Assembly (NCBI GenBank): GCA_039809385.1
Contig: JBDHUY010000011.1
Span: forward strand, 2,132-66,131
DNA from: Candidatus Altimarinota bacterium
GTDB lineage: Bacteria; Patescibacteriota; Gracilibacteria; JBDHUY01
DNA length: 64,000 nt
Reading direction: 5' to 3'
This document shows positions 3,541-53,091 of the stretch, piece after piece (positions within the stretch are counted from its first letter, which is position 1; every line of letters begins with the position of its first letter). Under the pieces are notes generated by a model. It saw nothing but the letters and a program-made list of their open reading frames with translations. It made no database searches and was not told the origin of the DNA. The position numbers were made by a program, and so were the translations under genes.

Positions 3541-6141
3541 CTATTTCCTGGCCGGTTTCTTGACCGGTTCTTCTTTTTCCTGTCCCATACTTTCGGCCCA
3601 GCGACGGATTTTATCTTCGACGATCTCACGACTCTTTCCGTAGCGCTCCCTGGATACTTTTTGGACCTTGTCTTTTTGCAGATCGGCATTTTCTACTTTC
3701 ATCGGCGGAAACGTATTGGCAGAAAAGGTGTTTGTGGGCATGTTATCGACCAGCATTTTCAGATACACGAAACCGCGGGGAAGCTGGAGCAAATCCTTGG
3801 GCAGGATCTCCTCGTTAAACTGGCTTTGCAGATATTCGGCATCGTCAAAACCAACCTGAAACGAGACCATCGAACCGACATTGCCAAAGACCGCGTCGCG
3901 TACCTCTTCAGGCATCTGAGCGATATATTGGTTCGCAATAACCAGGTTTAAACGATACTTGCGGGCTTCGGACAGGATTGTGGCGAAAGCGTTGGTGGCA
4001 AAATTCTGAAACTCGTCCACGTACAGGTAAAAATCGTTACGGTCCTTTTCGGCCATATCGGCCCGGCTCATGGCATCCAGCTGAAAGCGCGTGACAAACA
4101 TCGAGCCCAGCAAGGCGCTGTTATCTTCGCCGATCTTGCCTTTGGACAAGTTTACGATGACGATCTTCTTGTTATCCATCGCCCAACGGATCTGAAAAGC
4201 TGATTTGGGTTGTCCCAGAATATTACGGATGATCGAACTGGATAAAAACTGTCCGACCTTGTTCTGGATCGGAGAAATCGCTTCGATTCGCTGTTTATCG
4301 GACATTTTATTATACTCGCTCACCCAGAAATTCTTAACCAGAGGATCGCTCACCTTGGCCACCACCTTTTCGCGGAAATCGTCGTCAGTGAGTATTCGCA
4401 TGATTGCCAGCATGGTCGAATTGGGATATTCGAGCAAGGACAGGATAGTGTTACGCAAAATATATTCCAGGCGCGGGCCCCACGAATCGGCATACAGTTT
4501 TTTAAAGACGCCAACCAGTCCCGACGCCACCAGATTGCGCTGCTCTGGACTGACTTGCTCGATCATATTGAACGCCAGCGGGTACTGCACGTCGGACGGA
4601 TCGAAGACGATCACATCGTTGGTACGTTTCGCCGGCACGAAACTCATCGCCTTCTCGGCCAGATCGCCGTGGGGATCGATCACCGCCAGACCATTGCCGT
4701 TTTGAATATCGGCATAGATCATATTCTCCAACAAAGTCGACTTTCCCATACCGGTTTTACCAATGATATACAGATGCCGGCGGCGATCTTCGCGTTTCAT
4801 ACCAAAAGGTTTACGCTGATCGCGGAAATTGCTTTCGCCTAACGGCGTGACTTCCGGATTGCCGGCCGTTAGAAGCGGAACCTTCTGGGGAGGCGCCAGA
4901 GTCTTAGAGGTGATAACGGCAATATTGTGAACTTCGATCGTACTGATCGGCAGATGAAAGACCGAGGCCAGTTCCTCTGCATTCAGAATAAAGGCCGGGT
5001 CCATTGCCCGGTTCAGGGCAGCGCTCAGAATAAGCTGCCGGTTGCGATTGGTGGAAACGATTTTGAACCCGTTCAGGTGCGGCAAATTAAATTGCTTGAA
5101 ACTTCCGGCGATTTCCCGCACTTTCGATTCGGCGGCACGCATATCGGCGTTATCGGTCGCATAAACGATCCGGATCGCTACTTTAAAGCCAAGCTTGGCG
5201 ATTTTGCCCAGCATCGAATTTTTGATCGTATCGTCCCGAATCTCTTCACCGCGCTGAATTTTCTCCAGTTCGTCCAAAGCCGAAGAGTCTTTGGGCAGAA
5301 AAGCACGAATGACGTTCCGCAAGATGGCGAAAGGGAAGAGCAGGATAGTTATACCTTTGAGCAGAAGCTCATTCTGCATGCTCCATTGTAAAAACGCCAG
5401 ACGCATCTTGGATGCGAAAGACGAAGCGTTCGAAGCTAATTGAATATGCCGTAAACCGGCTTTGTGCCAATTGTCCGCCAAGGGCGAAAAAATGATCTGT
5501 ACTACCGCCTTGTCTTCGGCCTGATGAAGTTTGGAAAGAGAAGAGACGATTCCGGAGAGCGAATCATAGGTTTTCTTGGCGATCGCATCCTCAAACTGCC
5601 GGTACTTTTTGATCGGATAAACATACGGCTCCTGAAGGGATAATTTAGCGCTGATAAGGGATTTTTTCTGTGTCAGCGTTTCTCCGTAATCTTTGCGTTC
5701 GTAAATTTCGATATCCGGATACTGGGCATACAGTTGGCTTTCAAACAACTCTTTCAGATCGGAACGGATCCATACGTAAAATCGTATTAAATCGCCGAAA
5801 TTGGCTATTTCGATACTGATACGCGGCTGCACGTCGCCAAACCAGCGGCTGACAGAATTTCTTTTCTGATAGATACTGTGCAGACTGGAGAAGACCTGTT
5901 CGGCCGCCAAAGGGCCGCGTTGCTCTTCTTCGCTGTTTTTGGAAACGATAATTTCCAGCAGAATATGATCATGTGCCAGTTCCTCACCCCGTTTCAGACG
6001 TTGCCGCTGAAAAAGCGATGTAAGCCCCAAAACTACCACAATTCCATAGATACTAAGCAGAAGCCACACTATTGCCATACATACATTACAAGATACGGTA
6101 ATTTGGGGAGAATTTACAACCCAAGGACTATTATCCGGCAA
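3541..6141 (-). CDS. Membrane-anchored P-loop ATPase of the FtsK/HerA superfamily, TraG/TraD/VirD4 (T4SS coupling-protein)-like
   Basis: N-terminal TM (MAIVWLLLSIYGIVVVLGLTSLF). Walker A 'IIGKTGMGKSTLLENM', Walker B 'FYLYVDEFQNF', and 'EARKYRLNLVIANQ' arginine/Q motif. Confidence 0.7.
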   Translation of the reverse strand: MPDNSPWVVNSPQITVSCNVCMAIVWLLLSIYGIVVVLGLTSLFQRQRLKRGEELAHDHILLEIIVSKNSEEEQRGPLAAEQVFSSLHSIYQKRNSVSRWFGDVQPRISIEIANFGDLIRFYVWIRSDLKELFESQLYAQYPDIEIYERKDYGETLTQKKSLISAKLSLQEPYVYPIKKYRQFEDAIAKKTYDSLSGIVSSLSKLHQAEDKAVVQIIFSPLADNWHKAGLRHIQLASNASSFASKMRLAFLQWSMQNELLLKGITILLFPFAILRNVIRAFLPKDSSALDELEKIQRGEEIRDDTIKNSMLGKIAKLGFKVAIRIVYATDNADMRAAESKVREIAGSFKQFNLPHLNGFKIVSTNRNRQLILSAALNRAMDPAFILNAEELASVFHLPISTIEVHNIAVITSKTLAPPQKVPLLTAGNPEVTPLGESNFRDQRKPFGMKREDRRRHLYIIGKTGMGKSTLLENMIYADIQNGNGLAVIDPHGDLAEKAMSFVPAKRTNDVIVFDPSDVQYPLAFNMIEQVSPEQRNLVASGLVGVFKKLYADSWGPRLEYILRNTILSLLEYPNSTMLAIMRILTDDDFREKVVAKVSDPLVKNFWVSEYNKMSDKQRIEAISPIQNKVGQFLSSSIIRNILGQPKSAFQIRWAMDNKKIVIVNLSKGKIGEDNSALLGSMFVTRFQLDAMSRADMAEKDRNDFYLYVDEFQNFATNAFATILSEARKYRLNLVIANQYIAQMPEEVRDAVFGNVGSMVSFQVGFDDAEYLQSQFNEEILPKDLLQLPRGFVYLKMLVDNMPTNTFSANTFPPMKVENADLQKDKVQKVSRERYGKSREIVEDKIRRWAESMGQEKEEPVKKPARK

Positions 6142-36425: not shown

Positions 36426-36806
36426 TCAGACCTCATCGACCCATGAATATAAAAGCTCGCGGGATACTTTTTCCGGCAGCCAATGTGTAAGGACTTCCGG
36501 GGAACAGATAAGCTGATATTGATCTTCGTAGAAAGGAGTATCGATGTCTGGCAAGACATAAACCCAGAGTTCACCCTGAATTACCGAAATATGCCAGTCG
36601 AATAATCCGGATTCCAGATATTTCTTCCATCCCTGTTTCTTCCAGAACGAGATCGCGCCTGGAAAGTCCTGTCCCCGCCGGGGCAACCACGAACCGTCGG
36701 GTTTGTGATTTCTGCGCGGATCATCGCGAGGGCAGAACTCGTCGACTGCCTGATAGAGACCAAGACACTTTCCCTTATTTTTGACGATAAACCGTACCAG
36801 CGCCAT
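36426..36806 (-). CDS. Hypothetical protein (Trp-rich, soluble)
   Basis: 126-aa ORF, last gene of the co-directional cluster. Confidence 0.45.
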   Translation of the reverse strand: MALVRFIVKNKGKCLGLYQAVDEFCPRDDPRRNHKPDGSWLPRRGQDFPGAISFWKKQGWKKYLESGLFDWHISVIQGELWVYVLPDIDTPFYEDQYQLICSPEVLTHWLPEKVSRELLYSWVDEV

Positions 36807-36818
36807 GAGGAGAGGCAG

Positions 36819-37730
36819 TTAAGCAGACTGTATCTTCTGTATCAAAATTTTATACAGTAATTGTCGGAAAAAACCGAAAGGAACGCGATCCTGACCACTC
36901 ACAGTATCCAGCACCAGATTAAGTACTTCCCCATGTTCAATGACTCCTGCGGCCAGCTGGGTCAAACTGTGATCATCAAGAAGAGTTTTATTAGTAGATT
37001 TCATGATCAGTAAGATTTCTTGGTACCTTCCTTTGGCAAGACACAAGGACCATAGAAGAGACCAAACATAGTCGGGAGCGTTGATTTCTCTGCAAACTTT
37101 AATTACACCCGAAAAATCATCTTTGGAAAAGTCCCGCTGCTTAAAAGTGGTATCTATCAGATGTGAAAATTCGTGCTGGGGTAAAGAAGTGGCGACAGCA
37201 ATTGAAAAAGCGATAACGTAATCTCTATTCTCCAGAAATCTATCTGCTAGACCAACCGCCATTGGCTGTGAAAAGCCGGCCGGCTGCACGATACGCAAGA
37301 TATCAGAAGTATTGAAAATAGAGCAGGGACTAATATTTTTGTGATTTGCATACGCAAAATAGAGATCGAAGATTTCCATATATTTTTCTTCTTGGTATTG
37401 TCGTTCTTTGGCAATATGGAGTAGTGTCTCAATAGAAACAAGGTCCTTTTTTTGTAACATATAGTACCAGACCAGGTCGAGGTCATTGGTAGACACAGGG
37501 CCTAATTCTTGTAACTCTTCCAGAGAAAAATGAGAAGTTTTACGGTTCCTCAAATAGCTGATCAAATCAGCCGATGCGTTTTTTTCCGCATCTTTCATTC
37601 TCTGCATTTTTGGAGAATATTTATTTTCATAGGGCTCTCTTCTATCCGGCTGTTCTGGATTTGTCATAAGAAAACTGGTTATATACTCAATAGTTCTATT
37701 AATCCCGGGAAGTTTCGACAAACGACTCAT
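36819..37730 (-). CDS. Hypothetical helical protein
   Basis: 303-aa ORF, visibly AT-rich, no TM, no recognised motif. Confidence 0.5.
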   Translation of the reverse strand: MSRLSKLPGINRTIEYITSFLMTNPEQPDRREPYENKYSPKMQRMKDAEKNASADLISYLRNRKTSHFSLEELQELGPVSTNDLDLVWYYMLQKKDLVSIETLLHIAKERQYQEEKYMEIFDLYFAYANHKNISPCSIFNTSDILRIVQPAGFSQPMAVGLADRFLENRDYVIAFSIAVATSLPQHEFSHLIDTTFKQRDFSKDDFSGVIKVCREINAPDYVWSLLWSLCLAKGRYQEILLIMKSTNKTLLDDHSLTQLAAGVIEHGEVLNLVLDTVSGQDRVPFGFFRQLLYKILIQKIQSA

Positions 37731-37852
37731 CCAACTGTATCTGACTGTTAAAGGAATTCACACAGGTTTTTTAGGGCCTATATGAGAATTCATTGAGAAC
37801 CAAAATAAACTACACAGAACAGTGATAATAACTCATGAAAAACAAGAAATCA

Positions 37853-38491
37853 TTATTGAGTAGCCAATAATTTCATTTTTGTTCTGATTGTCTCTGCAGC
37901 GGTTTGATCTGGGAGATCAACAACAAGTTCTAAAACATCTTTCATATCTTGAGGAGATACCGTTTTTTTTACCATTGCCGTAACAATCATATCGTACTCT
38001 ATTGCGCTATCAGGATCCCACGGGTGGTAGGTATTAAAAAATTTCTTTAATTCTGGAATCGAACCGATCTTATGATCAAGCACAAATTTCAGTGCTTGTC
38101 TTACGAGGACAGTACAAGCTGGATTCTCACTAAACTGATAGTCCCAGTATTCACCAAGAGCAGTTTTAAACGTTTCAATAGAACTTACATCCTTGAGAAA
38201 TTTTTCGCCTAAAAACATCAAAGCCTCGGGAGCAAGATGTACTTTAGCGAAAAGGTTTAAATGTAGTTTATCTTGAGAAGACAAAGCTTTCAGTAGAGCT
38301 AATTGTGTGGCACTATCTGGAGGACAAAAGCGAAGAAAAGCAGTTAATAAGTCATTAGATGAGAATGTTGATAATTTATCTAGAGACATTTCACCTGCAA
38401 AGAGAGCAAGTGCTGTTGGGTTTCCAAATAAGTTGCTGACGTTTTCAAATTTTGTATCAAGAATAGTTGTTTGAATATCGGTTCCTTCCAT
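37853..38491 (-). CDS. Hypothetical helical protein
   Basis: 212-aa ORF, AT-rich, 24 nt downstream of the PKD gene. Confidence 0.5.
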   Translation of the reverse strand: MEGTDIQTTILDTKFENVSNLFGNPTALALFAGEMSLDKLSTFSSNDLLTAFLRFCPPDSATQLALLKALSSQDKLHLNLFAKVHLAPEALMFLGEKFLKDVSSIETFKTALGEYWDYQFSENPACTVLVRQALKFVLDHKIGSIPELKKFFNTYHPWDPDSAIEYDMIVTAMVKKTVSPQDMKDVLELVVDLPDQTAAETIRTKMKLLATQ

Positions 38492-38515
38492 AAAAACGAA
38501 TAAAAAAATGAGATT

Positions 38516-40813
38516 TCATTCTACCCCTACCTGCTCACTAAACTGACTACTGATATTATCCTTACTCGTAATCGTCAGTACCACCATGTACGTTCCAGGA
38601 GTCGTAAAAACATGCGTCGGCTTACGGTCGGTAGAAACCGTACCGTCGCCAAAATCCCAGAAGTATTTAGCGATAGGACCATTCGACTCGGTCGGATCAA
38701 ACACCACGCTCAGCGGCGCCGCTCCGGTTTTTACATTGGTTTTAAAGCGAGCCACCACCGGAACCTCGGAGACAACGATATCCTGCGTGGCGGTCTCTTT
38801 TTTGGCATCGTTGGTAAAAACGGTGAGCTGTACTTTATAAACCCCTACCTGCGCAAAGGTATACTGTATCTGCGCCCCGTAGATCTTGGGCGGCGTTCCG
38901 TCGTCAAAATCCCACTGATACTGCGTAATCGTCCCGCCGTTATAGCGCGAAGCCGAAGCGTCAAAAAGAACAGTTAACGGCGCCGCTCCCGAAAGAGGGC
39001 TGGCTTTGATAATCGCCTCCAGAGGTTTGGCTTTGGTTTTAATCAAAATAGTCTGGGACACCTCGTTTTGCTGCGCATCCACAACTTTGAGCGTAACGGT
39101 GCGCTCCCCTTCCTCATAAAAAGTCTGCACGTCAGGCTTGGCGCCCCTGGTCTCGAAATTGCCATCGCCGTCAAAGTCCCACTGATAATCCACGATATCG
39201 TTATCCTTGTCGGTCGAGGCCGAAGCGTCAAACGTCACCGCTAAGGGCACGCTGCCTTCGATCACGGCTCCGCTTGCCCCCTGCTTGAAACTCGGCGTGG
39301 TTTTCAGCTGAATCACCGGCGACGAAGTTTTGCCCTTTACTATGATATCGACCGAAGACGATCCCTGATTGGATTTGTCGTCGGTAAGGGCGAGATTTAC
39401 TTTATAGGTACCCGGTTTTTTAAACGTATGGGTCGCGGTCACCGTCTTCTCCCGCAGAGTATTATCGCCAAAATCCCATTCGTATTTAACGATTTTACCT
39501 GCCGGACTGCGCGATTCGGAGGCATCGAAATTTACAGTCAGCGGGGCATCCCCTTCCATCGGAACTGCCAGAATTGAGGCTTTGACAGTATCGTCGCGTA
39601 CGCCGGTGATCGTAATGACTTTTTCGGCTGTATTGTACTTTTTATCGCGATTTTCAACCCGTAAACGCACCGTATAGGTTCCGATTGTCTCGAACGTATA
39701 GGTAAGCTTGGGCGTTGTACCCTCGTTAAAACGGTTATCGCCGTCGATCTCCCAGGCATACGTGACATCTTTAGGGTCCTGGCTGTTGGGATCGTAAGAC
39801 TCTGAGGCGTCTAATGTTACTGTCAGAGGTGCCTCGCCCTTGTCTTTATCGACGTTGATGACGGCTACCGGCAACAAATAGGCAATCGATATGTTCTTTT
39901 TGAATTGTTGCGTTTTTTCTTCTCCTTTGTTATCAACGGCGGTAATCGTGAGGGTAACCGGATAATTCCCGGCTTTAAATGTTTTGTCGTAATTCCAGCG
40001 CTCTTCCTTGCCGCCGATCCGGTCGCTCTTGCCGTCGCCGGTAAAATCCCAGTCGTACTTTACGATCTCGTAACCGCGGGTAAGTTTATTTTCCAGATTG
40101 GAGGCGTCAAAAATGAGTTCGATGGGCGCGGTGAGACCGGTCGTGACAGCGAGAGGTTCACGCGTTTGCGCATTATAGACCACGATATCCCCTTGAATAG
40201 CCGAATTGCCATCCACCCGTACCTGTCCGATACTGAAAAACGCAAACACCCAGATAACGATATCGACCAGCAGAATCAGGGTTGTAATAAAAATGGCAAT
40301 CGTGGTTTTTCGTTTTCCGGCCTTGTCGTCCTTGTGGGTCAGAATACGACGAAAAATATTGACCACGACAGCGATCAGCAGCAGCATCGAAAAGAATCCG
40401 AAGCTGATATTGACCAGGCTGCTCAGCAGATTTTTGACTGCGGCCGGATCCAGGCCGAGCTGTTTAAAGAAAGGATTGTTCGGATCGCCGTTAAACGCGA
40501 ACACCGAGAGTAAAACGAACAAAACGAAGAGAAAAGCGAATAATCCGAAACAGCCCAAAAAGAAACCGGCTCCGATCTTCTTGCCCTTGACCACTTTTTT
40601 CCCGGCAGGCCTGGTCTGGTTTGGCGCAGCTTGAGTTGCCGGAGTTTCTGTCATAGGCTGAGTCGGTTGAGAAGAAGCAGCATTGGTAACAGGAACAGAT
40701 GTATTAACCTGAATATCCTCTGCCAACGGACCGATATTGTTGGTACCGGGAACGGTATCACCAGAAGCAGGCTCTGGATTTTGAGGCGGAGGATTGGGAG
40801 TAGGCGTATCCAT
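38516..40813 (-). CDS. PKD-repeat membrane protein (disordered N-tail, 3 TM, six PKD domains)
   Basis: Six 'Y.W[DE][FI][DGT]' PKD cores: YDWDFTGDG, YAWEIDGDN, YEWDFGDNT, YQWDFDGDG, YQWDFDDGT, YFWDFGDGT. Pro/Thr/Gln-rich N-terminus. TM segments GFFLGCFGLFAFLFVLFVLLSVFAF and others. Confidence 0.85.
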   Translation of the reverse strand: MDTPTPNPPPQNPEPASGDTVPGTNNIGPLAEDIQVNTSVPVTNAASSQPTQPMTETPATQAAPNQTRPAGKKVVKGKKIGAGFFLGCFGLFAFLFVLFVLLSVFAFNGDPNNPFFKQLGLDPAAVKNLLSSLVNISFGFFSMLLLIAVVVNIFRRILTHKDDKAGKRKTTIAIFITTLILLVDIVIWVFAFFSIGQVRVDGNSAIQGDIVVYNAQTREPLAVTTGLTAPIELIFDASNLENKLTRGYEIVKYDWDFTGDGKSDRIGGKEERWNYDKTFKAGNYPVTLTITAVDNKGEEKTQQFKKNISIAYLLPVAVINVDKDKGEAPLTVTLDASESYDPNSQDPKDVTYAWEIDGDNRFNEGTTPKLTYTFETIGTYTVRLRVENRDKKYNTAEKVITITGVRDDTVKASILAVPMEGDAPLTVNFDASESRSPAGKIVKYEWDFGDNTLREKTVTATHTFKKPGTYKVNLALTDDKSNQGSSSVDIIVKGKTSSPVIQLKTTPSFKQGASGAVIEGSVPLAVTFDASASTDKDNDIVDYQWDFDGDGNFETRGAKPDVQTFYEEGERTVTLKVVDAQQNEVSQTILIKTKAKPLEAIIKASPLSGAAPLTVLFDASASRYNGGTITQYQWDFDDGTPPKIYGAQIQYTFAQVGVYKVQLTVFTNDAKKETATQDIVVSEVPVVARFKTNVKTGAAPLSVVFDPTESNGPIAKYFWDFGDGTVSTDRKPTHVFTTPGTYMVVLTITSKDNISSQFSEQVGVE

Positions 40814-40940
40814 AACAGGGAGAAAATAATGTAGAATCAGGAAGTTAGAATCAAGAATCTAAAAGCATGGCAGAATAATAAGAGAAATTCATGGAAATTG
40901 ATGGAAATTGGTAAAAATGTGTTGCAGGTAATCGTACTTT

Positions 40941-41115
40941 GGGCTGTCAGCGGCCAGTGATCAGCGGTCAGTGGCGGGCCATTAGCATTCATACATCATA
41001 CATCTGTTCTCTTAACTCCTGTCTTGCTGTTGTCAGTCGTCTGTAGGCTGTAAGCTGTCAACGTCAATCATATTCCCTACTCCTAACTCCGTTCTCCCAA
41101 CTCCTGTCTTGCTCC
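40941..41115. repeat. Continuous heptad-register spacer (about 24 units)
   Basis: tcagcgg|ccagtga|tcagcgg|tcagtgg|cgggcca|ttagcat|tcataca|tcataca|tctgttc|tcttaac|tcctgtc|ttgctgt|tgtcagt|cgtctgt|aggctgt|aagctgt|caacgtc|aatcata|ttcccta|ctcctaa|ctccgtt|ctcccaa|ctcctgt|cttgctc. Confidence 0.85.
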
Positions 41116-41119
41116 CCGA

Positions 41120-44100
41120 TCACTCCGAGTGAAGCGAAGAGTCTGTCTCCTGCCCATGCTTATTGGGCCCATTATACGGCAAATTCGGTTTCTTTTGAAA
41201 GGGCTTTGCACCGAACTTTTTATAGGGAGGAGTTGGGCGAGTAAACGGCCGTTGAGAGGAAGAAAGCTGTTTCGTATTGTTATTATTCCCGGGCGGCAGT
41301 TCGGGGAAATTTTGTCCGGGCGGCAGTTCCTGCTCGGCGAAGCGTCCTTTGATTTCGGGAGTATTGAAGTTCGGTTTCGGCGGAAACTTTTTAGGATAGG
41401 GTTTATACGGTTTTTTTTGAAATGGCTTTTTTGACTTCCACGGTTGCGAGGATGTTGGTTTCGACACAGGTTTTTGCGCTTCGGGGGAAGATGGCACCTC
41501 AGGCAAAGTAGTCTCGGAAACCGGGGGGAGATTTGCATCTACGACAGGTGCAGGAGGAGGCAGGGCATCCGGTGTACCTGCAGTACCGGTCGGCTGGTCT
41601 GCACTGTCTGCAACAAGAGGTTCAAACGGAGACGTGGCAATGCCGGAAGTAGGCGGCAGGGAATCGGAGTTGAGAGATCGATCTGGAACAGATGACGCCG
41701 GTTCAGTAGGCGTCAAAAAATCAGGTATGGCGGCATCGGCCGGTTGAGAGACTGGCAGAGGTGTAGGAGGAAATATGCCAAAAGGATCGTCGTTAACAGT
41801 AGGAAAGGAAGAACCGGCAACGGCAGGCGAATCTGAGAAGGAGGGCATGGCCGGAGTTTGAGCAGATGTTGGAGATACTACCCCAGCGAAAGGATCTGGG
41901 GTTGTCGAAGAAGAGGACGTCGAGGCTGCAGGTTGATCTCCGAAAATATCGATATCAAACGGAGAGGCCGGAACACTCGGATTAGACGGGGCAGGATCTA
42001 AGAAAGAGGGAGTAACCGCGGCTGAGGTGGCAAAAGGATCGACGGCTTGCGGAGGAGATGCCGGAGGGTTCTGATTTTTATCGGTACTTCCGAAAATATC
42101 AATATCAAAGGGCGATGGAGATGGAGGCGCGGGAGTATCAAGAAACGTAGAGGGTGTTGGCGGCAACGCCGAACCGAACGGATCGGATGCAGAAATAGAC
42201 TGCGGATCACTCGCACTCGGTCCGGATGAAAAGATATCGGTGTCGAAAGGAGAAGCAGGGCTTGCGGAAGACGTCGGATTCGGGACAGATGTATTCAGAA
42301 AATCAGGCTGGGGCGAAGCAGCAGCTCCAAATGAGCCGGTTTGCTGGTTGGAAGAACCGAAAATATCAATATCAAAGGGCGAAGGTGTTTGCGAAGGGTT
42401 TCCTGTCGCTGCGGATAGTGAAGGTGAAGGTGATGGTGTTGACGCAGCAAATGGATCGCCCGGTGCAGAAGGCTGCGAATTATTTCCCGGTCCGCTTTGA
42501 GAAAAAATATCCGTATCGAAAGGAGAAGAGGCGCTGATTCCGGGAGTAGGCGCATCCCCAAAAGGAGTTGCTCCGGAGGCGACAGGTGGATCTAAAAAGG
42601 AAGGCAAGCTTGCGGAATCGTCGGGAGACGTGCCGGGAGACGGCGGGGAGAAATCCAGAAAAGACGCTGTAGGCGGCGTGCCAGACTCTGGGGAAACAAC
42701 AGGATTTGCAGCAGGCGGAACTGTCCCTTCACTCGAATCAGTCGCTCCTATCTGAAGCCAATCGGGCATCTGGCCTGCCGAAGCCTGAGGAGGTTCGGCA
42801 GGGGTCGCGGGAGCTGGAGGCTCGGCAACTGGTTCGAAGTTCCCATCGGGAGAAGGAATCGGTGTAACGTCGATGACCGAAGGTGGGGTACTCTTGGGAG
42901 GTTCGGGCTTCGAAGATGCCTGAGCTTGGTCGCCTTCGTCTTTTTTACCTGGCCTGAATCGAGAGATCCAACCGGTTACCATACCCCGCAAATCCAGAAT
43001 AAACTCTTCAAAATCGAGATCTTCCCGGTTGGTAATACGTTTATACGCTATAAACGAAACAAACAGCACGATTCCCAGAAACAGGAAAATGCCGATAATC
43101 CAAAGCGCGAACTGCAAAATACCGAAGAGAAAGGACAAAAACAGATTTTCCCCTGCCGGTGCGGGTGATGAAGGGCCTTCTGCTGCTGCTCCGTTTTGAT
43201 TCTCGTTGGTAACAGTGCCCGGTTCCGCATTAAGATTGTCATTGGTATTGGCAGTTTCGGGAGCATTGAGGTTTAGATTAGCATCGCCGTTCTGATTAGA
43301 ATTAGCCGTAAGCACGGGAGTCAGAGAGTCGGCAATCACCAAAAGTACGTTACCTACTTGCTGTTTGGCATCGTCAGGTAATTTCTGACTTTCGGCAACA
43401 GCCGTGCGAGTCTCGTCCAAAGCCTGGGAAACCGCGGCAGCATCGATTCCGTAATTCGACTTAAGCGATATCAGCGCTTTATTGACTTTTATTTTGGTCA
43501 AAGGTTCGGCCTCGGCAATAATATTTTTGATACGCTGAATCGAAGAATCGATATCGATAAACGATTCTTTCAGGTCTAAAATGTTCTGGATATTACCGAC
43601 CAGACGGTCTCTTTGTTCTTGAGTAAGCTGTTCTGCGCGCAGGACCAGCTCCTTGGCCTGTGTCAGTGCGTCCTTGTCACCGCGGGATAGGAGTTCGCGG
43701 ATCTGGTTCTGTAGCTCCTGGGACAGAGAACTCTGCGAGATGGCCGTAACAGCATCGTCGAGATTTTTATTGATAATTTCGGTTTTGGAAGGCTGCGGAT
43801 TAGCATTGAGATTGGCATTTTCGGGCAGGACGACCGCGTCGTCGAAAATAATGGGAACCGTTACCTGATCCATGATATTGTTATCGCCGACAACGGTAAG
43901 CTGTACCTCGATCGGCTGAGGCAAAAAGGTATACGATATGCCCGAACCATTGGTAAAAGAAAGGGTATTTTTATTGTCGATATCGTTATTTTTGATACCG
44001 TCTCCGTCGCTATCCTGAAAAACATTGCGATCGATGCGGTATTCGCGGATTTTACCGATCGAATAACCGCCAAAGAACGTTACCTTGTTTTTTTCACGGG

Positions 44101-47100
44101 TGAGGTGAATCTTCCGGTCAAGTTCATTTACTTCGGGGACGGTAATCAATACAGCCTGTAACGATTTAGACGGATCAAGTTGGACATTCTTAGGCAACTG
44201 CCCTTTGACCAGCGTAACGGTTCGAACTACGTTGTCTTTTATTCCTCCTTTGCCCGTGACGTCGAGTCGCACCTGATAGCTGCCATAGTCGTTAAACGTA
44301 AATTGAGGATTTTCCTCCTGGCTGTCTTTGTCATTTTGAGCGCTGCCATCACCGTCGCTGTCACGCGAAAGATCGAAGTCCCAAGTATAAGAAAGAGGGG
44401 CAGGGCCGCTGGAATTATTGAGAAACAGAACAGTTTTATCGACCTGAGTAAACAGAAAAGCGGCAGTGGCAATACTTTCGGAACGGGGGTTAATCAATAC
44501 CGAAACGTTGCCCTTGTTGCTCAATCCTTGATATTCGACCCGGGCAGTCACATTGTAATTTCCCGGAGTATCGTACACTCGCGTGACATAAGCCCCCGAC
44601 GTCGTATCTTCGAAAGTTCCGTTCCCGTCAAAGTCCCAGGAAATCCGGGCATCGGGAACCGGTTCGCCTTTCGCGTTCCGACCGATCGCGGTAAACTGAA
44701 CCGCTTCGCCAGCCTTGACGCTGGTTTTATTAACGCTGACCTCTACCTGCAGGGGCTCGTTAGCACGGTTTGTTACGGTCAATACTCCGGTATTTTCGCC
44801 CAGCACATCATCGCTCCGCACAACCGCCCCCTCGTTATCGGTCATTTCGACGACAAAACGATAGGTAACGCTCTGACCGCCAAAACCGCGCGTAGGAATA
44901 TTAAACGTGGTAGAAGGAGTGGTAGTAGTACGCACGCTCAGATTTTCTTCGGTACCGTTTTCGACATAAAACCATTTATACGAAACGATTTTGCCGTCAC
45001 GGTCGGTTGCCCCCACGGCACGCACGGCGACTTGCACCGGAGTCAATAGCGACGCAGGCGCGTCCAATACCAGATCGGTGAGCTGAGGAGGCCGGTTGCG
45101 TACAGCGACCAGAAGGGGCGAAGCACTGGCAGTTTTACCCGAATCTCTGTCGGTAATCGTAAGTTGTACCGAAAAACAAGTATTGCCGGACACGTCGTTA
45201 AAACGGTGCGTAATCGTTTTTTTGGTACTGACGGTTCCGTCGCCGAAATTCCAGGAATATTCCAGAAAGCGGCTGGAGCCGTCACGGTTGATAGCACGCG
45301 AAGCGTCAAAACTGGGATTATCGTTACGGGAAATCAGGAGCCCCGGCCCGCCGTTACACAAATTAGGCGTAAGCGGTAACATTTCACCGTTCAAACTATA
45401 GTCGATCAAGGCTACGGGGCTGTCGGCTTCTCCGACATACACATTGGTCGTGGTCGTAGTATCGTTATTATCTTTGTCAAAAACGGTAACTTTGACAGGG
45501 TAAACCCCGGCTGTCTTGAAACGATAGGTATATTGCGTTTTATCCGTCTGCTCTTTCTGTTCACCGAAATCGTAAAGATAAAAGATGGCACCGGGAGCAT
45601 TGACTTTGACGGTAACGTCTTTGCCAACCTGAGTGACCGGCGGATCGATCGTGACATCGGCGCTGAGTACTGATGTAATCGAGACAGTCTGCTCCCGCTC
45701 CACGAAATTTTGCGAAGAATCGGTCACGCGTAATTTTACACGGTATTCTTTGGCTGCCGGAAAACGATATTCTCCCCGGCTGCCGGCCTCGTTCGTATTT
45801 TCCAGCGTAACCGGTGTACCATCTACCAGCCAGGTAAACGAGAGCGTTTCATTTTGATCGGGATCATAAGAATTAGTCGCGTCAAAGACAAACTGATTTG
45901 GATGTCCGACATCTTTCTGTTTGAGAGACAAAGTAACAACCGGCGGCTTGGAAGTCACTTTGACTTGACGAGTATCCTGAACGGTTTTGCCGTCATTATC
46001 CGTGACTTGGAGCAAAGCCGTATAGACACCCGGCGTCTCGAATTTGTAAGTAAAGCTTTCTTCTTTCGTCTCGCGCAGAACTTCACCCGCTCCGGTCGTG
46101 ATTTTCCAGCTGAGCGAATTGACTCCGCTGGGGATCTTTGACGTATTGGCGGCAAAACGGAACGTCGTATCGGTAGTACCTTCTTGGGGGGTAATTGTGG
46201 CCGAGGCGATCGCATCGGCCACCTCGACCGTTATACTTTTGACGATCTTTTGATTTCCGGTATCCGTGAACTGGACCGCAACCTGGTAACGACCGACTTT
46301 GTTATATTTATGCGTTATCGAAACCGGCGTTCCGTTAAAACTCTGACGATTACTGCCATCGCCAAATTCCCAGTCGGTTTTGGCGATATCGAGTCCCACG
46401 GTCGAGCTGGTGCCGGCAGGATCGAAGAGCAGCCCGTCCTGAGCTTCTTTGAGGGTTACTTTGACGAGATCTTCTTGGGTAACATCGACTTGATTGATTT
46501 TTAGCTGAACTGTCGCCAGGGGTGCTTCGGCTTTGACGCTGATGGTAGCATCCCCGGGCAAAACGACACTGTCGCCGCTGGCACTCTTGACTTCCAGATG
46601 CACCACATACGTATTAGGAACCCGAAAGGTTTCCGAGACGTTGGCACCGTTTCCTAAGTCGCGGCGCTGCCCGCTGGAATCGAGATACCACCAGCTGTAA
46701 TTGTTCGTAGGAATCGTATTGTTGGTCGGATCGGAAGAAGAGGCTCCGTTAAAGAGAACAGTGAGCGGAATTGGCCCGGAGCTTTTACTGGCATTGATTA
46801 CCGCACGCATCTGAGGCAGTTTGACTACCTGCTGCTTGAGAGTCTCGATTTTGGTTTGAATGTCACGACCGGTCGAAGAAGAAGGACTTTGCTGGTAAGT
46901 CTGCAGTGCGTCGTCCAGTTCCTGAGCAGCTTGTCCTGCCTGAGAGGTAGGAGGTAATTGTTGAATGATCGGCTGAAGTTGCTCACGATAACGGTCGATA
47001 ATTGTTTTGGATTCGCTTTGGGGACGAGAGCGTAACTCTTGCAACAACTGGCTCAAAATCCGATCCAAATCCTGGGCGGTATTACCGGTAGCGCTGGTAA

Positions 47101-47986
47101 CTCCCCCACTCGAGGAAGTTCCCTGACCGGCATTTAACAATTGTTCCAGTGCGTTCAAAGCTTTTTTCAGATCGTCACTATTTTGAGGACTGGGATTGGT
47201 CTTGAATTTGTCGAGCGCCTGTAAAACCGCCTGTAACTGCTGGGCCGACGCATTCTGGAGCGACGAATCAAGTTGCTTTATGGTAGTCTGTAACTGAGTT
47301 TTAAGTGCGTCGATTTCGCGTTCGAGAGTACCGGTATCGGCGGGCGGATTATTGACGGTGTTATAAATATTATTAATCGTGGGTGCGGCCGGATTGCTGC
47401 CAGTACCGCTACTGCTCCCCGAGGAGCTGGAAGAAGAAGACGATCCGCTTCCCGAAGAACCTGAAGAAGAGCTCGAGGCATTTGAGCCCGAAGAAGAGCT
47501 TGAACTGCTGGTGTTGGTAGAAGTGCTACTACCGGATGGCGGACCGTCGATAACATTGACGAAAAAATTGACGATAGCATAGGAGATCAGAATAATCACG
47601 ATGCCGACGCCGGTAAACACGATCGTCTTTTGAGATTTCTTGACCTCGCCGTCGTTGCCGGCAAAGGCTACCATGCGGAACCCGGCGTAGATTACGATAA
47701 CGACCGCCAACAGCCCCAGAAATGTCAGAAAATAGTTGATGATCGTGGTGACGGCTTTGCGAATCTCGTCGTTTTTTCCCTGTTCGCAAATCGTCGGAAA
47801 TTTCACGCAATCTTCTTCTTCAAGGCCGGGCCCGGTCGGAACACCGTTAAACTGAGCGGAAGCATGCGGAATATGCAAAACAAAGAGCGTTCCAGCCATC
47901 AGCACTAAAAATAATACTCCCTGCAGGCGCCGAAAAAGCGAGGAAAAACGATTCGACAAGTACTGTGAGTTATAATCAAACGACAT
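41120..47986 (-). CDS. Giant (2288 aa) surface protein: signal peptide, pilin-like hairpin module, Ser-rich linker, coiled coil, about 10 PKD/Ig-like domains, membrane anchor, long disordered Pro/Ser-rich tail
   Basis: Single uninterrupted ORF. N-terminal 'AVTTIINYFLTFLGLLAVVIVIYAGFRMVAFAGNDGEVKKSQKTIVFTGVGIVIILISYAIVNFFVNVI'. PKD cores (DWEFGDGS, YSWNFGDGT, ISWDFDGNG, YTWDFDLS...). TM 'FLSFLFGILQFALWIIGIFLFLGIVLFVSFIAYKRI'. Confidence 0.9.
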   Translation of the reverse strand: MSFDYNSQYLSNRFSSLFRRLQGVLFLVLMAGTLFVLHIPHASAQFNGVPTGPGLEEEDCVKFPTICEQGKNDEIRKAVTTIINYFLTFLGLLAVVIVIYAGFRMVAFAGNDGEVKKSQKTIVFTGVGIVIILISYAIVNFFVNVIDGPPSGSSTSTNTSSSSSSSGSNASSSSSGSSGSGSSSSSSSSGSSSGTGSNPAAPTINNIYNTVNNPPADTGTLEREIDALKTQLQTTIKQLDSSLQNASAQQLQAVLQALDKFKTNPSPQNSDDLKKALNALEQLLNAGQGTSSSGGVTSATGNTAQDLDRILSQLLQELRSRPQSESKTIIDRYREQLQPIIQQLPPTSQAGQAAQELDDALQTYQQSPSSSTGRDIQTKIETLKQQVVKLPQMRAVINASKSSGPIPLTVLFNGASSSDPTNNTIPTNNYSWWYLDSSGQRRDLGNGANVSETFRVPNTYVVHLEVKSASGDSVVLPGDATISVKAEAPLATVQLKINQVDVTQEDLVKVTLKEAQDGLLFDPAGTSSTVGLDIAKTDWEFGDGSNRQSFNGTPVSITHKYNKVGRYQVAVQFTDTGNQKIVKSITVEVADAIASATITPQEGTTDTTFRFAANTSKIPSGVNSLSWKITTGAGEVLRETKEESFTYKFETPGVYTALLQVTDNDGKTVQDTRQVKVTSKPPVVTLSLKQKDVGHPNQFVFDATNSYDPDQNETLSFTWLVDGTPVTLENTNEAGSRGEYRFPAAKEYRVKLRVTDSSQNFVEREQTVSITSVLSADVTIDPPVTQVGKDVTVKVNAPGAIFYLYDFGEQKEQTDKTQYTYRFKTAGVYPVKVTVFDKDNNDTTTTTNVYVGEADSPVALIDYSLNGEMLPLTPNLCNGGPGLLISRNDNPSFDASRAINRDGSSRFLEYSWNFGDGTVSTKKTITHRFNDVSGNTCFSVQLTITDRDSGKTASASPLLVAVRNRPPQLTDLVLDAPASLLTPVQVAVRAVGATDRDGKIVSYKWFYVENGTEENLSVRTTTTPSTTFNIPTRGFGGQSVTYRFVVEMTDNEGAVVRSDDVLGENTGVLTVTNRANEPLQVEVSVNKTSVKAGEAVQFTAIGRNAKGEPVPDARISWDFDGNGTFEDTTSGAYVTRVYDTPGNYNVTARVEYQGLSNKGNVSVLINPRSESIATAAFLFTQVDKTVLFLNNSSGPAPLSYTWDFDLSRDSDGDGSAQNDKDSQEENPQFTFNDYGSYQVRLDVTGKGGIKDNVVRTVTLVKGQLPKNVQLDPSKSLQAVLITVPEVNELDRKIHLTREKNKVTFFGGYSIGKIREYRIDRNVFQDSDGDGIKNNDIDNKNTLSFTNGSGISYTFLPQPIEVQLTVVGDNNIMDQVTVPIIFDDAVVLPENANLNANPQPSKTEIINKNLDDAVTAISQSSLSQELQNQIRELLSRGDKDALTQAKELVLRAEQLTQEQRDRLVGNIQNILDLKESFIDIDSSIQRIKNIIAEAEPLTKIKVNKALISLKSNYGIDAAAVSQALDETRTAVAESQKLPDDAKQQVGNVLLVIADSLTPVLTANSNQNGDANLNLNAPETANTNDNLNAEPGTVTNENQNGAAAEGPSSPAPAGENLFLSFLFGILQFALWIIGIFLFLGIVLFVSFIAYKRITNREDLDFEEFILDLRGMVTGWISRFRPGKKDEGDQAQASSKPEPPKSTPPSVIDVTPIPSPDGNFEPVAEPPAPATPAEPPQASAGQMPDWLQIGATDSSEGTVPPAANPVVSPESGTPPTASFLDFSPPSPGTSPDDSASLPSFLDPPVASGATPFGDAPTPGISASSPFDTDIFSQSGPGNNSQPSAPGDPFAASTPSPSPSLSAATGNPSQTPSPFDIDIFGSSNQQTGSFGAAASPQPDFLNTSVPNPTSSASPASPFDTDIFSSGPSASDPQSISASDPFGSALPPTPSTFLDTPAPPSPSPFDIDIFGSTDKNQNPPASPPQAVDPFATSAAVTPSFLDPAPSNPSVPASPFDIDIFGDQPAASTSSSSTTPDPFAGVVSPTSAQTPAMPSFSDSPAVAGSSFPTVNDDPFGIFPPTPLPVSQPADAAIPDFLTPTEPASSVPDRSLNSDSLPPTSGIATSPFEPLVADSADQPTGTAGTPDALPPPAPVVDANLPPVSETTLPEVPSSPEAQKPVSKPTSSQPWKSKKPFQKKPYKPYPKKFPPKPNFNTPEIKGRFAEQELPPGQNFPELPPGNNNNTKQLSSSQRPFTRPTPPYKKFGAKPFQKKPNLPYNGPNKHGQETDSSLHSE

Positions 47987-48007
47987 ATGCGAAAAGCAAA
48001 ATAAAAG

Positions 48008-48457
48008 TTATCCCCGTACCGCATTGATCACGGTAGTGACCAGAGCATACGCTATCAGAATAATGATAATACCGGTTAGAATGGCGATGATCAGTTTTGT
48101 CGCTTTTTGGCGATTACCTTCATTATTAAACGATGTGATATACAAAACGCCGGCATAAATAATACCTACTACCGCAATTAGGAAAATGAATCCCAGACCA
48201 AACTGAATCCATCCGAAAATCAACGCGCGGGCATTGGTTGTAGTTGAGACATTTCCCGACAACTCGTTCTTCGTCGCATCGATTCCGGGCTGGATACCGC
48301 ATTCGTCTCCCTGGCAATAGGGATTTTTACTATCGAAAGCCGTATCGGTATTGGAAAAATCCGTATTCTGGGCATGCACGTTCAGTGGTACATGTATCGT
48401 CGACAGCATGCTCCATATAAAGATCATTGCTCCTATGTGAATAATCTTTTTATTCAT
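48008..48457 (-). CDS. T4SS-pilin-like (TrbC/VirB2-like) protein, single module
   Basis: Signal peptide, then 'LIFGWIQFGLGFIFLIAVVGIIYAGVLYITSFNNEGNRQKATKLIIAILTGIIIILIAYALVTTVINAV'. Confidence 0.7.
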   Translation of the reverse strand: MNKKIIHIGAMIFIWSMLSTIHVPLNVHAQNTDFSNTDTAFDSKNPYCQGDECGIQPGIDATKNELSGNVSTTTNARALIFGWIQFGLGFIFLIAVVGIIYAGVLYITSFNNEGNRQKATKLIIAILTGIIIILIAYALVTTVINAVRG

Positions 48458-48524
48458 TTTGATCGAGTATAAACGCCAAATTATTCAGAAAATTATACCA
48501 TATACATCCTCTTCTATACAACGA

Positions 48525-49433
48525 CTATCCCGAATTTAACAACGGTGCGGCAAAAAAGGTGACGATAGTATAGGCGCTGACCAGCAATGCCAGTCCCAAT
48601 ACTACCCACAGGATGGTTTTGCGCGCCTTTTGAACTTTTTGATCGTTCCCAAAATTCACGATCATGTTGATGGCGGCATAGAGCAGCATCAATATTCCCG
48701 AAATCGCGCTGAAACCGAGGATATAATTGACGACTTGCAATACCAGACTAATCGCGCCGGACGGATTGGGATTAACCGAAGTTTCACCGTAGAAATTCTG
48801 AATGAGCGGGCGCGCTATCAAAATCACAATCAGACCGAATGTCGTTGGAATAAATACCCGTTGTAATTTTTTGATCCGGGCCTCGTCGCCCAGGGCCGTG
48901 ATCATGCGTACCCCGCTGATAATGATCACAAAAACGGCGGTGATTGCCAGAAAACTGAGGAAAAAACTCAGGAGCGGATTGACTATCCGTTCGCGAATGT
49001 CGTCCGGAAAATCGCGGATATCGTTGACGGAACGTCCGCTTGGCGTAAAGAAGATTGAGACGATGACCTCAGCTACTTGCATGAGGATCAGACCGAACAG
49101 CAAAATAAAAATACCGGTCAAACTTTTTTTATTCGCATCGGCATTACCGCCGGCGGTCACCATCCGCAATCCCGATATGATGATGAGCAACACGGCTATT
49201 ACCGCGATAAAACTTTTTACCACTCCGGCATAGTAGATCAGAATATCCCGAAGTCCCTGGGCGCCTTCGGTGCTGACCGGAGCATTAAAGGCTTGATCGG
49301 GAGTACCTAAAAGAAAATCAAAAACACTACGCGGATCTTGCTGGGCATAGGTCGCCGGGAGAGCCACACAGCAAAATGCCAATCCTGCCAAAACAAGCGC
49401 TACTGCCAATGGAAAAGAAAAACGCTGTTTCAT
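48525..49433 (-). CDS. Membrane protein with three tandem pilin-like hairpin modules
   Basis: Signal peptide plus 3 units. Examples: VVKSFIAVIAVLLIIISGLRMVTAGGNADANKKSLTGIFILLFGLILMQV and VVNYILGFSAISGILMLLYAAINMIVNFGNDQKVQKARKTILWVVLGLALLVSAY. Confidence 0.7.
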   Translation of the reverse strand: MKQRFSFPLAVALVLAGLAFCCVALPATYAQQDPRSVFDFLLGTPDQAFNAPVSTEGAQGLRDILIYYAGVVKSFIAVIAVLLIIISGLRMVTAGGNADANKKSLTGIFILLFGLILMQVAEVIVSIFFTPSGRSVNDIRDFPDDIRERIVNPLLSFFLSFLAITAVFVIIISGVRMITALGDEARIKKLQRVFIPTTFGLIVILIARPLIQNFYGETSVNPNPSGAISLVLQVVNYILGFSAISGILMLLYAAINMIVNFGNDQKVQKARKTILWVVLGLALLVSAYTIVTFFAAPLLNSG

Positions 49434-50392
49434 AATATTATAGGTGCGGCAAATTTCAGAACTTCGGTAACTACCGTATAGGCAGAATAGATGATCACCA
49501 TAGCAATCAGCGTTCCCTGGACTATTTTGATCCCTTTCGTGCGCAGGGAATCGTTCGCTCCCGAAAAGATAAAATAAAATCCGCCCAGGATTAGTCCGGC
49601 AAATCCGATCGGGACAACAAAAAGAAGCATTAAACGCAGCAGGGATCCGATCACCCCGTGACCTCGTTCGACATCGCCTTCGAAAGCGATACGCTGGAAT
49701 TCTCCGGCCAGGGCAATCACGATCAACCCCAGAATACTCCAGAGTATTTGGCGACGGTACTTCGCGGCAGCATCATCGGCACCGCTGGCACTACTGATCA
49801 CGATTTGGTATCCGCTGATAATAATCGATACGATCGCGACGGTCCCGGCAATGCCCCTCAACGCCGTGATAACGATGCTGATAATATTTTTCCAGTCGAA
49901 CAAACTGGGTTCGTTGAGGCCGGCGCGGGGGACAAACGAGGCGAAAAAGAACTCTCCGACATTCAGGAAGATAAACCCGACCACGGCGTACAAAAGTCCC
50001 AAACGCGCTTTTTTACTGGCTTCGTCGTTAGCGGAAAAGACCATCCGGATACCGAAAAAAAGTATATAAAAAACCGCAACTCCCTGAAACAATATCCGGG
50101 TTGTCGGCAAGGCTTGATTGCGTACAAAATCGTTAAACGTATTATTCCCGTTCGTCGAATTTAATTCCGGTAAACTGGTACCCGGCAGATCAAAAGCTGC
50201 CTGGGTGAGAAAGGGGATCGTAAAAATTCCCGCAATAAAGAGAAAAACCGCTAGGACAAAGAATATGTTCTGCGCTGATCTGGCATTTTTTTCCGAAAGA
50301 AAAGCAGCAAATCGATTTCCCGGAGATCGTAAAACGAAATTCTTCGGAACATGTACGGGTTGGCGACTATGTTTTTGGTATGTGTATTGCAT
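49430..50392 (-). CDS. Membrane protein with three tandem pilin-like hairpin modules
   Basis: 3 units. Examples: VAVFYILFFGIRMVFSANDEASKKARLGLLYAVVGFIFL and FAGLILGGFYFIFSGANDSLRTKGIKIVQGTLIAMVIIYSAY. ATGA overlap with the next gene. Confidence 0.7.
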   Translation of the reverse strand: MQYTYQKHSRQPVHVPKNFVLRSPGNRFAAFLSEKNARSAQNIFFVLAVFLFIAGIFTIPFLTQAAFDLPGTSLPELNSTNGNNTFNDFVRNQALPTTRILFQGVAVFYILFFGIRMVFSANDEASKKARLGLLYAVVGFIFLNVGEFFFASFVPRAGLNEPSLFDWKNIISIVITALRGIAGTVAIVSIIISGYQIVISSASGADDAAAKYRRQILWSILGLIVIALAGEFQRIAFEGDVERGHGVIGSLLRLMLLFVVPIGFAGLILGGFYFIFSGANDSLRTKGIKIVQGTLIAMVIIYSAYTVVTEVLKFAAPIIL

Positions 50393-50449
50393 TTATATAT
50401 AATCCGTTTATTGTAGCACAAGATATTTTTTTTATCAAAGCCGGGAACT

Positions 50450-53024: not shown

Positions 53025-53091
53025 ATAAAAGAAAAATAAAACATAAGCCGATTTTAATCCGCATTTTTTACTTTTCAAGAGATTTTTGATT

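Follow-up and report, generated by a model that had tools for sequence, protein, structure and literature searches.

VirB2-like pilins (PF04956/PF18895) have been recorded in 1,948 virB4-bearing assemblies of Patescibacteria (also Candidate Phyla Radiation, CPR); they lie near virB4 in 1,135 and not near it in ~40% of the assemblies (PMC12102498). The same survey (Quinonero-Coronel et al. 2025) counted 441 arrays of 2-11 pilin genes in 383 CPR assemblies, with a mean paralogue identity of 25%, and reported that type IV secretion system (T4SS) genes are dispersed in Gracilibacteria. Homologues of the type IV coupling protein (T4CP, VirD4-like) were near-universal in the CPR and mostly unlinked to virB4, the Southlakia homologue being not essential. 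The pilin array in the T4SS cluster of Southlakia epibionticum (SEML1_0006-0019 region) is essential (PMC10633639; Wang et al. 2023). A 2025 review calls a pilus of CPR VirB2-like proteins an “intriguing possibility”, not yet demonstrated for any of them. Herein, we describe a chromosomal locus of pilin-like and adhesin genes in a 64-kb stretch of DNA (the window) from Candidatus Altimarinota bacterium (assembly GCA_039809385.1, contig JBDHUY010000011.1, positions 2,132 to 66,131), and compare it with these arrays and with other described systems.

Eight minus-strand open reading frames (ORFs) stand in a row at 36426-50392 of the window and encode proteins of 320, 302, 149, 2288, 765, 212, 303 and 126 aa, with intergenic gaps of -4, 67, 21, 306, 24, 122 and 12 nt. 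An earlier reading of the letters, the first-pass annotation, gave the coordinates, lengths and gaps of these ORFs exactly and suggested that all eight may be one surface apparatus, minimal or novel. A surface cluster of pilin-like and adhesin genes with no assembly genes beside them is indeed what we find, but neither its extent nor its novelty held: relatives keep just the five proximal genes together and have no counterpart of the three distal ones, and VirB2-like arrays unlinked to virB4, as well as stray T4CP genes, are already known from Patescibacteria (PMC12102498). To judge from sequence, the five proximal genes alone (38516-50392) are one conserved unit, a predicted envelope or surface module, and we hold its identity and extent with high confidence. 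The best overall explanation, to which we assign a probability of about 0.6, is a conserved module of VirB2-like hairpins and PKD adhesins with T4SS-type assembly, the core machine being encoded elsewhere. From its composition we infer that the module would function as a surface adhesion or pilus assembly. Its dependence on a T4SS, taken by itself, is close to an even bet.

The module shares with the Patescibacteria T4SS pilin arrays its Pfam family, tandem divergent pilin genes, signal peptides, a chromosomal location and a CPR host; as in those arrays, including the “Sec secreted array” of TM7x, which are often unlinked to virB4, there is no relaxase. It differs from them in that six of its eight hairpins are joined in threes within two proteins, another hairpin forms part of a PKD giant that also has an extra transmembrane (TM) helix and a tail, and the module includes a second PKD membrane protein. 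Further, its hairpin set, instead of varying, is fixed and shows positional orthology, and there is no T4SS gene within 10 kb. In the literature covered by limited full-text word searches, we found no description of covalent tri-hairpin proteins, of a hairpin-PKD giant fusion with second anchor and tail, or of strict positional orthology of a queA-linked eight-hairpin set.

Hairpin proteins and PKD adhesins

The features discussed here are listed in Table 1. Four of the five module proteins, pilins A, B and C and giant D, carry eight hairpins in total, spread 3 + 3 + 1 + 1 over them; the pilin B gene overlaps the pilin A gene by 4 nt. In each protein a signal peptide or anchor precedes the hairpins, which consist of two hydrophobic helices and a short basic loop (Kyte-Doolittle hydropathy and alignment). 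All eight hairpins align and have a common loop motif, GxxM..GN[DE]xxxKK (G-N-[DE]-x3-4-K-K), while paralogue identity within the window set is only ~17-43%. A profile built from the hairpins revealed no further copy anywhere in the window.

Table 1. Location of the module, the distal genes and two further features in the window.
Feature	Coordinates	Strand	Evidence
Pilin A, 320 aa: N-terminal TM anchor, then three tandem VirB2-like hairpins A1-A3	49430..50392	-	PF18895, hydropathy, hairpin profile
Pilin B, 302 aa: signal peptide, then three tandem VirB2-like hairpins B1-B3	48525..49433	-	PF18895, NF045849
Pilin C, 149 aa: signal peptide, C-x4-C loop, one VirB2-like hairpin	48008..48457	-	Sub-cut-off PF18895, hairpin alignment
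Giant D, 2288 aa, pilin-PKD fusion	41120..47986	-	PKD_4, sub-cut-off PF18895/NF045849, hydropathy, motifs
PKD membrane protein, 765 aa	38516..40813	-	PKD_4 9e-77, TM segments
212-aa ORFan, 24 nt downstream of module	37853..38491	-	Self match only
303-aa ORFan (282 aa from Met22), predicted all-alpha short-helix repeat	36819..37730	-	phmmer, AlphaFold2
126-aa soluble ORF, normal composition, no recognisable family	36426..36806	-	Singleton cluster
VirD4/TrwB-type T4CP-like ATPase, 866 aa	3541..6141	-	Pfam, NCBIfam, PDB matches
Promoter-like site TTGATA-17-TACAAT with TG, queA/pilin divergent intergenic region; candidate module promoter	50410..50438	-	Consensus scan

The pilin-like and adhesin content proposed at first pass was confirmed by family matches. 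PF18895 (T4SS_pilin, cut-off 26.6 bits) was passed by the 302-aa protein (45.0 bits) and the 320-aa protein (41.6 bits), and PKD repeats are present in the 2288-aa and 765-aa proteins. NF045849 (Mbov_0395 family) was the best NCBIfam match of all four hairpin proteins; pilin B was the only one to pass it (45.9 bits against a cut-off of 40), with aa 73-145 of the giant at 32.3 bits. Matches to PF04956 (TrbC) were weak and below cut-off. The window hairpins cross-match the hairpins of relatives by BLAST (E 1e-6 to 1e-13), and these matches tie the 149-aa protein and the giant hairpin to the VirB2-like family; an unmarked PF18895 match is on record for the orthologue of the 149-aa protein in L002, a 228-kb metagenomic contig. 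An AlphaFold2 (AF2) model of pilin B, built from a 7-sequence alignment, consists of three helix-loop-helix units (predicted local distance difference test, pLDDT, 58).

A signal peptide opens the giant, and behind a C-x6-C loop comes its one VirB2-like hairpin (aa 70-146, nt 47549-47779), followed by a Ser-rich linker, a Q/L-rich helical segment and a PKD/Ig array (~aa 396-1480, nt 43547-46801), in which Pfam marks eight PKD_4 stretches. Beyond the array lie a second helical segment and a third TM helix (aa 1628-1646, nt 43049-43105), followed by the conserved motif LDFEEFILDLRG. The remainder is a Pro/Ser-rich tail of ~640 aa (21% Pro, 15% Ser; aa 1647-2288, nt 41123-43048), and the Pro codons of this tail account for a strong GC skew at 41-43 kb. 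The positive-inside rule predicts that the ~1,480-aa ectodomain is tethered to the membrane at both ends, with the tail in the cytoplasm. All three full-length giant orthologues, which represent three lineages, have kept the third TM helix together with a juxtamembrane motif on its cytoplasmic side, LDFEEF[IV]L[DE][LM]RG; with the repeat-rich tail, this motif suggests that the giant has a cytoplasmic partner.

The tail carries five copies of SPFD[IT]DIF[GS], five of DPF[AG] and four of FLD within five degenerate ~45-aa repeats (aa ~1776-2070). These repeats are not present in the tails of the L002 orthologue and of the orthologue in L006, a Candidatus Peribacteria genome. The motifs formally resemble the eukaryotic DPF and FxDxF adaptor-binding motifs, a likeness that is probably coincidental.

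In the 765-aa protein a disordered N-terminus of 80 aa precedes three TM helices (aa 84-190) and a PKD ectodomain, with PKD_4 on six stretches. Its orthologues, each directly after the giant, share 48% identity in L002 and 38% in L006 and L020. A first metagenome scan with its N-terminal region found no relative; when the same region was scanned against 185,579 species-representative genomes, L006 was the only true orthologue, and the 12 PKD-only loci from that scan were spurious. We also considered the protein as an extended VirB6 and rejected this, as it has only three TM helices and no TrbL/VirB6 match.

The 306-nt gap between the giant and the 765-aa gene (40814-41119) contains the tandem repeats GAAATTGATG (x2.7, 40884-40910) and TCAGCGGCCAGTGA (x1.9, 40947-40973), and a promoter-like site, TTCAAA-17-TATAAT, lies at 41199-41171 within the 3' end of the giant gene. 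The 765-aa PKD gene may have its own internal promoter or regulatory region.

Conservation of the module in relatives

The queA-linked module recurs in five sequence lineages, one of them a Candidatus Peribacteria metagenome-assembled genome (MAG). The complete order, queA followed by A, B, C, giant and PKD gene, is found in L002/L003 and in L006/L020, where L006 is an “uncultured Candidatus Peribacteria bacterium” MAG (CAZPDC010000007.1) and L020 its unmasked metagenomic twin. The remaining loci, L004, L026 (NCBI GCA_020049695.1, JAHZTP010134967.1) and L028, are short contigs that cover only the 5' part of the module and end inside the giant. Pilin B has six homologues at 38-45% identity. Conservation of gene order across relatives, proposed at first pass as a check on the eight-gene cluster, therefore supports the order of the five proximal genes but not the inclusion of the distal ones.

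In L002 the arrangement is gidB and queA on one strand and, divergently, pilins of 302, 303 and 149 aa, a 1738-aa pilin-PKD giant and a 750-aa PKD protein. Identity between the window and L002 orthologues is 43% for A, 42% for B, 38% for C, 44% for the giant (over 1500 aa) and 48% for the PKD protein, compared with 63% for queA. In L006/L020, queA is followed by two tri-hairpin pilins, two single pilins, the giant frame and a 743-aa PKD protein; the giant is a 1896-aa frame that begins with a hairpin and has the same architecture as that of the window. It is one continuous frame of 1896 codons in L020, while in L006 a masked run of Ns (~4440-4610) splits it into an apparent 199-aa “pilin” and a 1720-aa protein. 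Public MAG annotation may thus undercount pilin-giant fusions.

The three short contigs agree with this arrangement as far as they reach. L004 has queA and gidB, then pilins A, B, C and the giant N-terminus. L026 and L028 both have pilin B, pilin C and the giant N-terminus (signal peptide, Cys loop, hairpin and low-complexity linker); L026 also has the 3' end of pilin A, and L028 has a 137-aa single-hairpin gene upstream of pilin B. After the linker in L026, Cys-rich “CPSxCSCS...EPPxWNFNG” repeats (1842-2651) replace the Q/L-rich helical segment, a sign that ectodomains may be swapped as modules while the pilin-type anchor stays the same.

The eight window hairpins are reciprocal-best 1:1 matches of the eight L002 hairpins, in the same order. 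Orthologous hairpins scored 180 on average, compared with means of 82 for pairs that are not orthologous and 73 among the window's own paralogues. L004, L026 and L028 have the hairpin types in this order as well, and so does L020, apart from one hairpin that is ambiguous and a C-type hairpin that is duplicated there. This positional orthology implies a fixed set of specialised hairpins older than these lineages, and not an array whose repertoire varies rapidly.

Downstream of the PKD gene the lineages part. At this place a convergent 196-aa gene and a GT4 glycosyltransferase follow in L002, and a DUF167-like gene, rpmA (L27), GT4 and yceG in L006.

Assembly machinery and related surface systems

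At first pass no VirB3/4/6/8-11, relaxase, PilB/C/T, sortase or prepilin-peptidase gene was seen in the window, and our Pfam or NCBIfam searches, which covered ~50 of its ORFs, agree, returning no match to any of these families. VirB4, TrsD, PrgI/VirB3 and VirB6 were not found, either among the ORFs searched across the window or within ~10 kb in L002 and L006; divergent CPR versions could escape Pfam. With no core T4SS gene near the module, its link to a T4SS is one of family homology. The absence of machine genes from 64 kb of a ~1-Mb genome says little about the genome as a whole.

The first-pass annotation named the ATPase at 3541..6141 the only candidate motor. By its matches it would itself be a canonical T4SS-family component, a predicted VirD4-type coupling-protein homologue. 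It passes the Pfam cut-offs for TrwB_AAD_bind (38.9 bits against 20.5; 6e-10) and T4SS-DNA_transf (24.0 against 20.1), also matches HerA/DUF87 (2.5e-10) and TraG-D_C, and among PDB sequences matches TrwB (1.2e-6) and DotL; its scores against the NCBIfam TraD and CD1115-type VirD4 equivalogs are all far below cut-offs. The protein has a TM helix at aa ~20-42 and a Walker A motif, GKTGMGKS, at aa 461, with an atypical N-terminal extension of ~440 aa and no known family between the TM helix and the P-loop domain. Its gene is flanked by a GT2 glycosyltransferase and a PEGA-domain protein, not by T4SS genes, ~32 kb from the module, and we found nothing in the window linking the two.

Other pilus types were considered and rejected. 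For type IV pili, neither the eight proteins nor the six-frame ORFs of the window contain a prepilin motif, and type IV pilus families gave no match. For sortase-assembled pili, the eight proteins have no LPxT[GAN] and the window no sortase family match. For the Pam pilus system, the sole matches were to NF058578 (PamR) at 17.9 and 16.2 bits, against a cut-off of 300. Like the Pam pili (PamA/PamB; bioRxiv 10.64898/2026.03.03.709456), the module has CPR surface proteins with Ig-like domains and weak PamR matches, but Pam pili are built of Ig-fold subunits joined by donor-strand exchange, whereas the pilin-like parts here are alpha-helical membrane hairpins, and no chaperone or usher-like genes are present. 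The PamR scores of 16-18 bits reflect generic Ig/PKD similarity.

The hairpin proteins share with the canonical conjugative pilins of diderm T4SSs, VirB2, TrbC and TraA (Agrobacterium, RP4, F), the long signal peptide, the two hydrophobic helices, the short basic loop and a weak PF04956 similarity; they differ in that this similarity is below cut-off, in the monoderm host and in the absence of VirB5 and VirB6-11 genes. To our knowledge, multi-hairpin and adhesin-fused forms are not a feature of classical pilins. The Mycoplasma pilin-like conjugal transfer proteins of the Mbov_0395 family are similar as well, in that the 302-aa protein passes their NF045849 model, but those proteins sit in integrative and conjugative elements (ICEs) with VirB4 and a T4CP, whereas here the context is housekeeping (queA, rsmG, yceD) with no ICE genes.

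The giant has parallels of its own. Giant membrane proteins with PKD-type domains, presumed to serve host recognition and attachment, are described for CPR episymbionts (Vampirococcus lugosii; PMC8080830), and large exported Cys-rich proteins for Peribacteria (PMC4736985). The giant resembles the proteins of these accounts in its very large size, predicted membrane localisation and PKD-type interaction domains. It differs in its N-terminal VirB2-like hairpin and its conserved operon with pilin paralogues, of which the consulted passages of the two papers make no mention.

In the explanation that we prefer, four Sec-inserted proteins would contribute eight distinct VirB2/TrbC-type helix-loop-helix hairpins, and these would combine into a defined hetero-oligomer, a membrane or pilus-like assembly such as has been attributed to the Patescibacteria T4SS. 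Two outcomes can be envisaged: either a pilus-like structure extracted by a CPR-type T4SS, or a platform wholly embedded in the membrane. Genes for the core machine (VirB4, TrsD, PrgI/VirB3, VirB6) would lie in another part of the genome. The giant would be built covalently into the assembly via its own hairpin, with the second membrane-anchored PKD protein alongside, and between them the two would expose at least ~14 PKD/Ig domains with which to bind a host cell or a substrate.

A number of observations weigh against this explanation. PF18895 scores are below cut-off for the 149-aa protein (21.9 bits) and for aa 73-145 of the giant (20.1 bits). The AF2 model of pilin B has low confidence, and a Foldseek search with it gave no link to solved VirB2/TraA, all matches having E>0.8; with so poor a model, the search is uninformative. 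The hairpin profile matched no VirB2/TraA/TrbC pilin among PDB sequences. No VirB4 or other core T4SS gene occurs in the 64-kb window, nor within ~10 kb in L002 and L006. Tri-hairpin polyproteins and a doubly anchored ectodomain are hard to square with a classical extruded VirB2 pilus. Finally, only 24 nt separate the PKD gene from the 212-aa ORF, with no terminator detected there, and the ORFans may be co-expressed with the module.

Some of these observations would suit an autonomous membrane-anchored adhesion complex better, with no pilus and no T4SS. Here the hairpins would be oligomerising anchors forming a fixed eight-hairpin platform that holds the giant and the 765-aa PKD protein at the surface, and the giant tail would couple the platform to the cell interior. 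T4SS core genes are missing near the module in both the window and the relatives, the hairpin triplets are covalent, and the giant ectodomain appears TM-tethered at both ends, with a conserved cytoplasmic juxtamembrane motif. Strict 1:1 conservation of the eight hairpin types likewise fits a defined complex better than a homopolymeric filament. However, the family is homologous to T4SS pilins, and in Saccharibacteria such arrays lie inside the essential T4SS cluster (PMC10633639); moreover, T4SS genes are dispersed in Gracilibacteria-type genomes, so missing linkage is weak evidence. We consider such a complex a tentative alternative, clearly less probable than the hairpin-adhesin module with T4SS-type assembly.

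A more specific architecture can also be proposed, although it is somewhat more doubtful still: a defined hetero-oligomeric pilus or pilus base with a covalently integrated PKD adhesin, linked to the cytoplasm via the third TM helix and the tail. If true, the VirB2/conjugative-pilus family would gain its first fusion of pilin and adhesin, and the hypothetical Patescibacteria T4SS pilus, or a T4SS-independent derivative of it, a concrete architecture.

VirB2-like arrays are essential for epibiotic growth in the one genetically tractable patescibacterium. The module suggests that the array of at least one CPR lineage consists of eight specialised hairpins in a fixed set rather than of variable antigens, and that hairpins can be concatenated and an adhesin fused directly to a hairpin. 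It thus offers specific targets for structure prediction of complexes, cryo-electron tomography and proteomics in Peribacteria-type organisms.

Distal genes and genomic setting

The three distal proteins have no relatives that we could detect. The 212-aa protein retrieved only itself among 5.8 billion clustered proteins, and a full phmmer search of 1.84 billion representatives with the 303-aa protein, which a public protein collection starts at Met22, likewise gave nothing but the query. The 126-aa protein forms a singleton cluster, and tblastn of related loci and plasmids was empty, in a remote-homology search that was not exhaustive. No recognisable motif had been reported for these proteins at first pass, and none of the three matched Pfam, NCBIfam, PHROGs, PADLOC or PDB sequences. 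Plasmid searches returned nothing, no counterpart is present at the related loci L002, L006 and L020, and the proteins are not paralogous to one another or to other window proteins.

The first-pass description of the distal genes as soluble, helical and AT-rich applies to them unevenly. A TM segment is lacking in all three proteins. The 212-aa gene (GC 0.37, GC at third codon positions, GC3, 0.27) and the 303-aa gene (GC 0.40, GC3 0.39) deviate from the housekeeping genes and the five-gene module (GC3 0.46-0.60), in codon usage too, and an AT-rich tract spans ~37.2-38.55 kb; the 126-aa gene (GC 0.49) has normal composition, so AT-richness holds for two of the three. A helical fold is supported for the 303-aa protein alone, by a single-sequence AF2 model of medium confidence (pLDDT 63), an all-alpha array of short helices. 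Foldseek, the structural check suggested at first pass, matched this model to generic designed/PPR/TPR repeats only (E>=0.01, TM-score < 0.4) and points to no function. By these data the 126-, 212- and 303-aa genes are predicted lineage-specific cytoplasmic ORFans and no part of the conserved system, and two of the three were probably acquired recently. The 24-nt gap and the lack of a detected terminator mean that the ORFans may be co-transcribed with the module.

Could all eight genes nevertheless form one novel minimal surface-filament system, with the distal proteins as assembly factors and the ATPase at 3541-6141 as motor? In its favour, the genes run in the same direction, no terminator was detected between them, their gaps (24, 122 and 12 nt) are short, and the window contains a T4CP-family ATPase. 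However, the distal genes are missing from every related locus that reaches past the module, where unrelated genes follow; the 212- and 303-aa proteins have no homologue and a foreign-looking GC3; and the ATPase lies 32 kb off among unrelated genes, CPR T4CPs being mostly unlinked and, in Southlakia, non-essential. We judge this system highly improbable and, given the lack of conservation, already refuted for the most part.

Rather improbable, too, is a role for the distal ORFans as cargo of individual strains, such as effectors, immunity proteins or chaperones, at a variable 3' end of the module, by analogy with the orphan toxin/immunity modules downstream of other contact-dependent systems. 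The ORFans do lie directly downstream and co-directionally, 24 nt away, with a composition typical of recently acquired DNA, in a region that differs in every lineage and adjoins an orphan relB. Yet all three lack a signal peptide and a TM segment and match no family of toxins, immunity proteins or defence, the model of the 303-aa protein shows a generic helical repeat, and no relative has a co-directional gene at that position.

The RelB-family antitoxin gene at 35783-36070 (+) adjoins the ORFan tract. The frames downstream of it are only 56-58 aa long, with no intact ORF of RelE/ParE size, and the region may be a degraded toxin-antitoxin pair that marks a variable or acquired region. Two more ORFs without a family match have low GC3, one of 341 aa at 52251-53276 (-; 0.32) and one of 505 aa at 60013-61530 (+; 0.39). 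Since they resemble the 212- and 303-aa ORFans in this respect, the window appears to carry several compositionally foreign orphan genes.

In the promoter and terminator scan of the window, site counts were not above those of shuffled sequence. The promoter-like site in the queA/pilin intergenic region is thus a positional hint only, the total number of such sites being no higher than in shuffles. Neither the stretch from the PKD gene to the 212-aa ORF nor those among the distal genes showed a terminator.

The DNA is of a CPR chromosome, probably with Peregrinibacteria/Peribacteria as its relatives. The module is transcribed divergently from queA, and the rest of the 64 kb is ordinary chromosome, with rpoD, dnaG, argS, eno, pnp, glyA, efp and dnaJ, as well as queA, rsmG/gidB, yceD, mutS, glycosyltransferases, Nudix enzymes and four tRNAs. 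A gene for a BRO-N domain protein at 21344-22219 (+) directly adjoins tRNA-Phe at 22295-22369 (-). The BRO-N family is typical of phages and mobile elements, and this gene beside tRNA-Phe may be the remnant of an integrated element.

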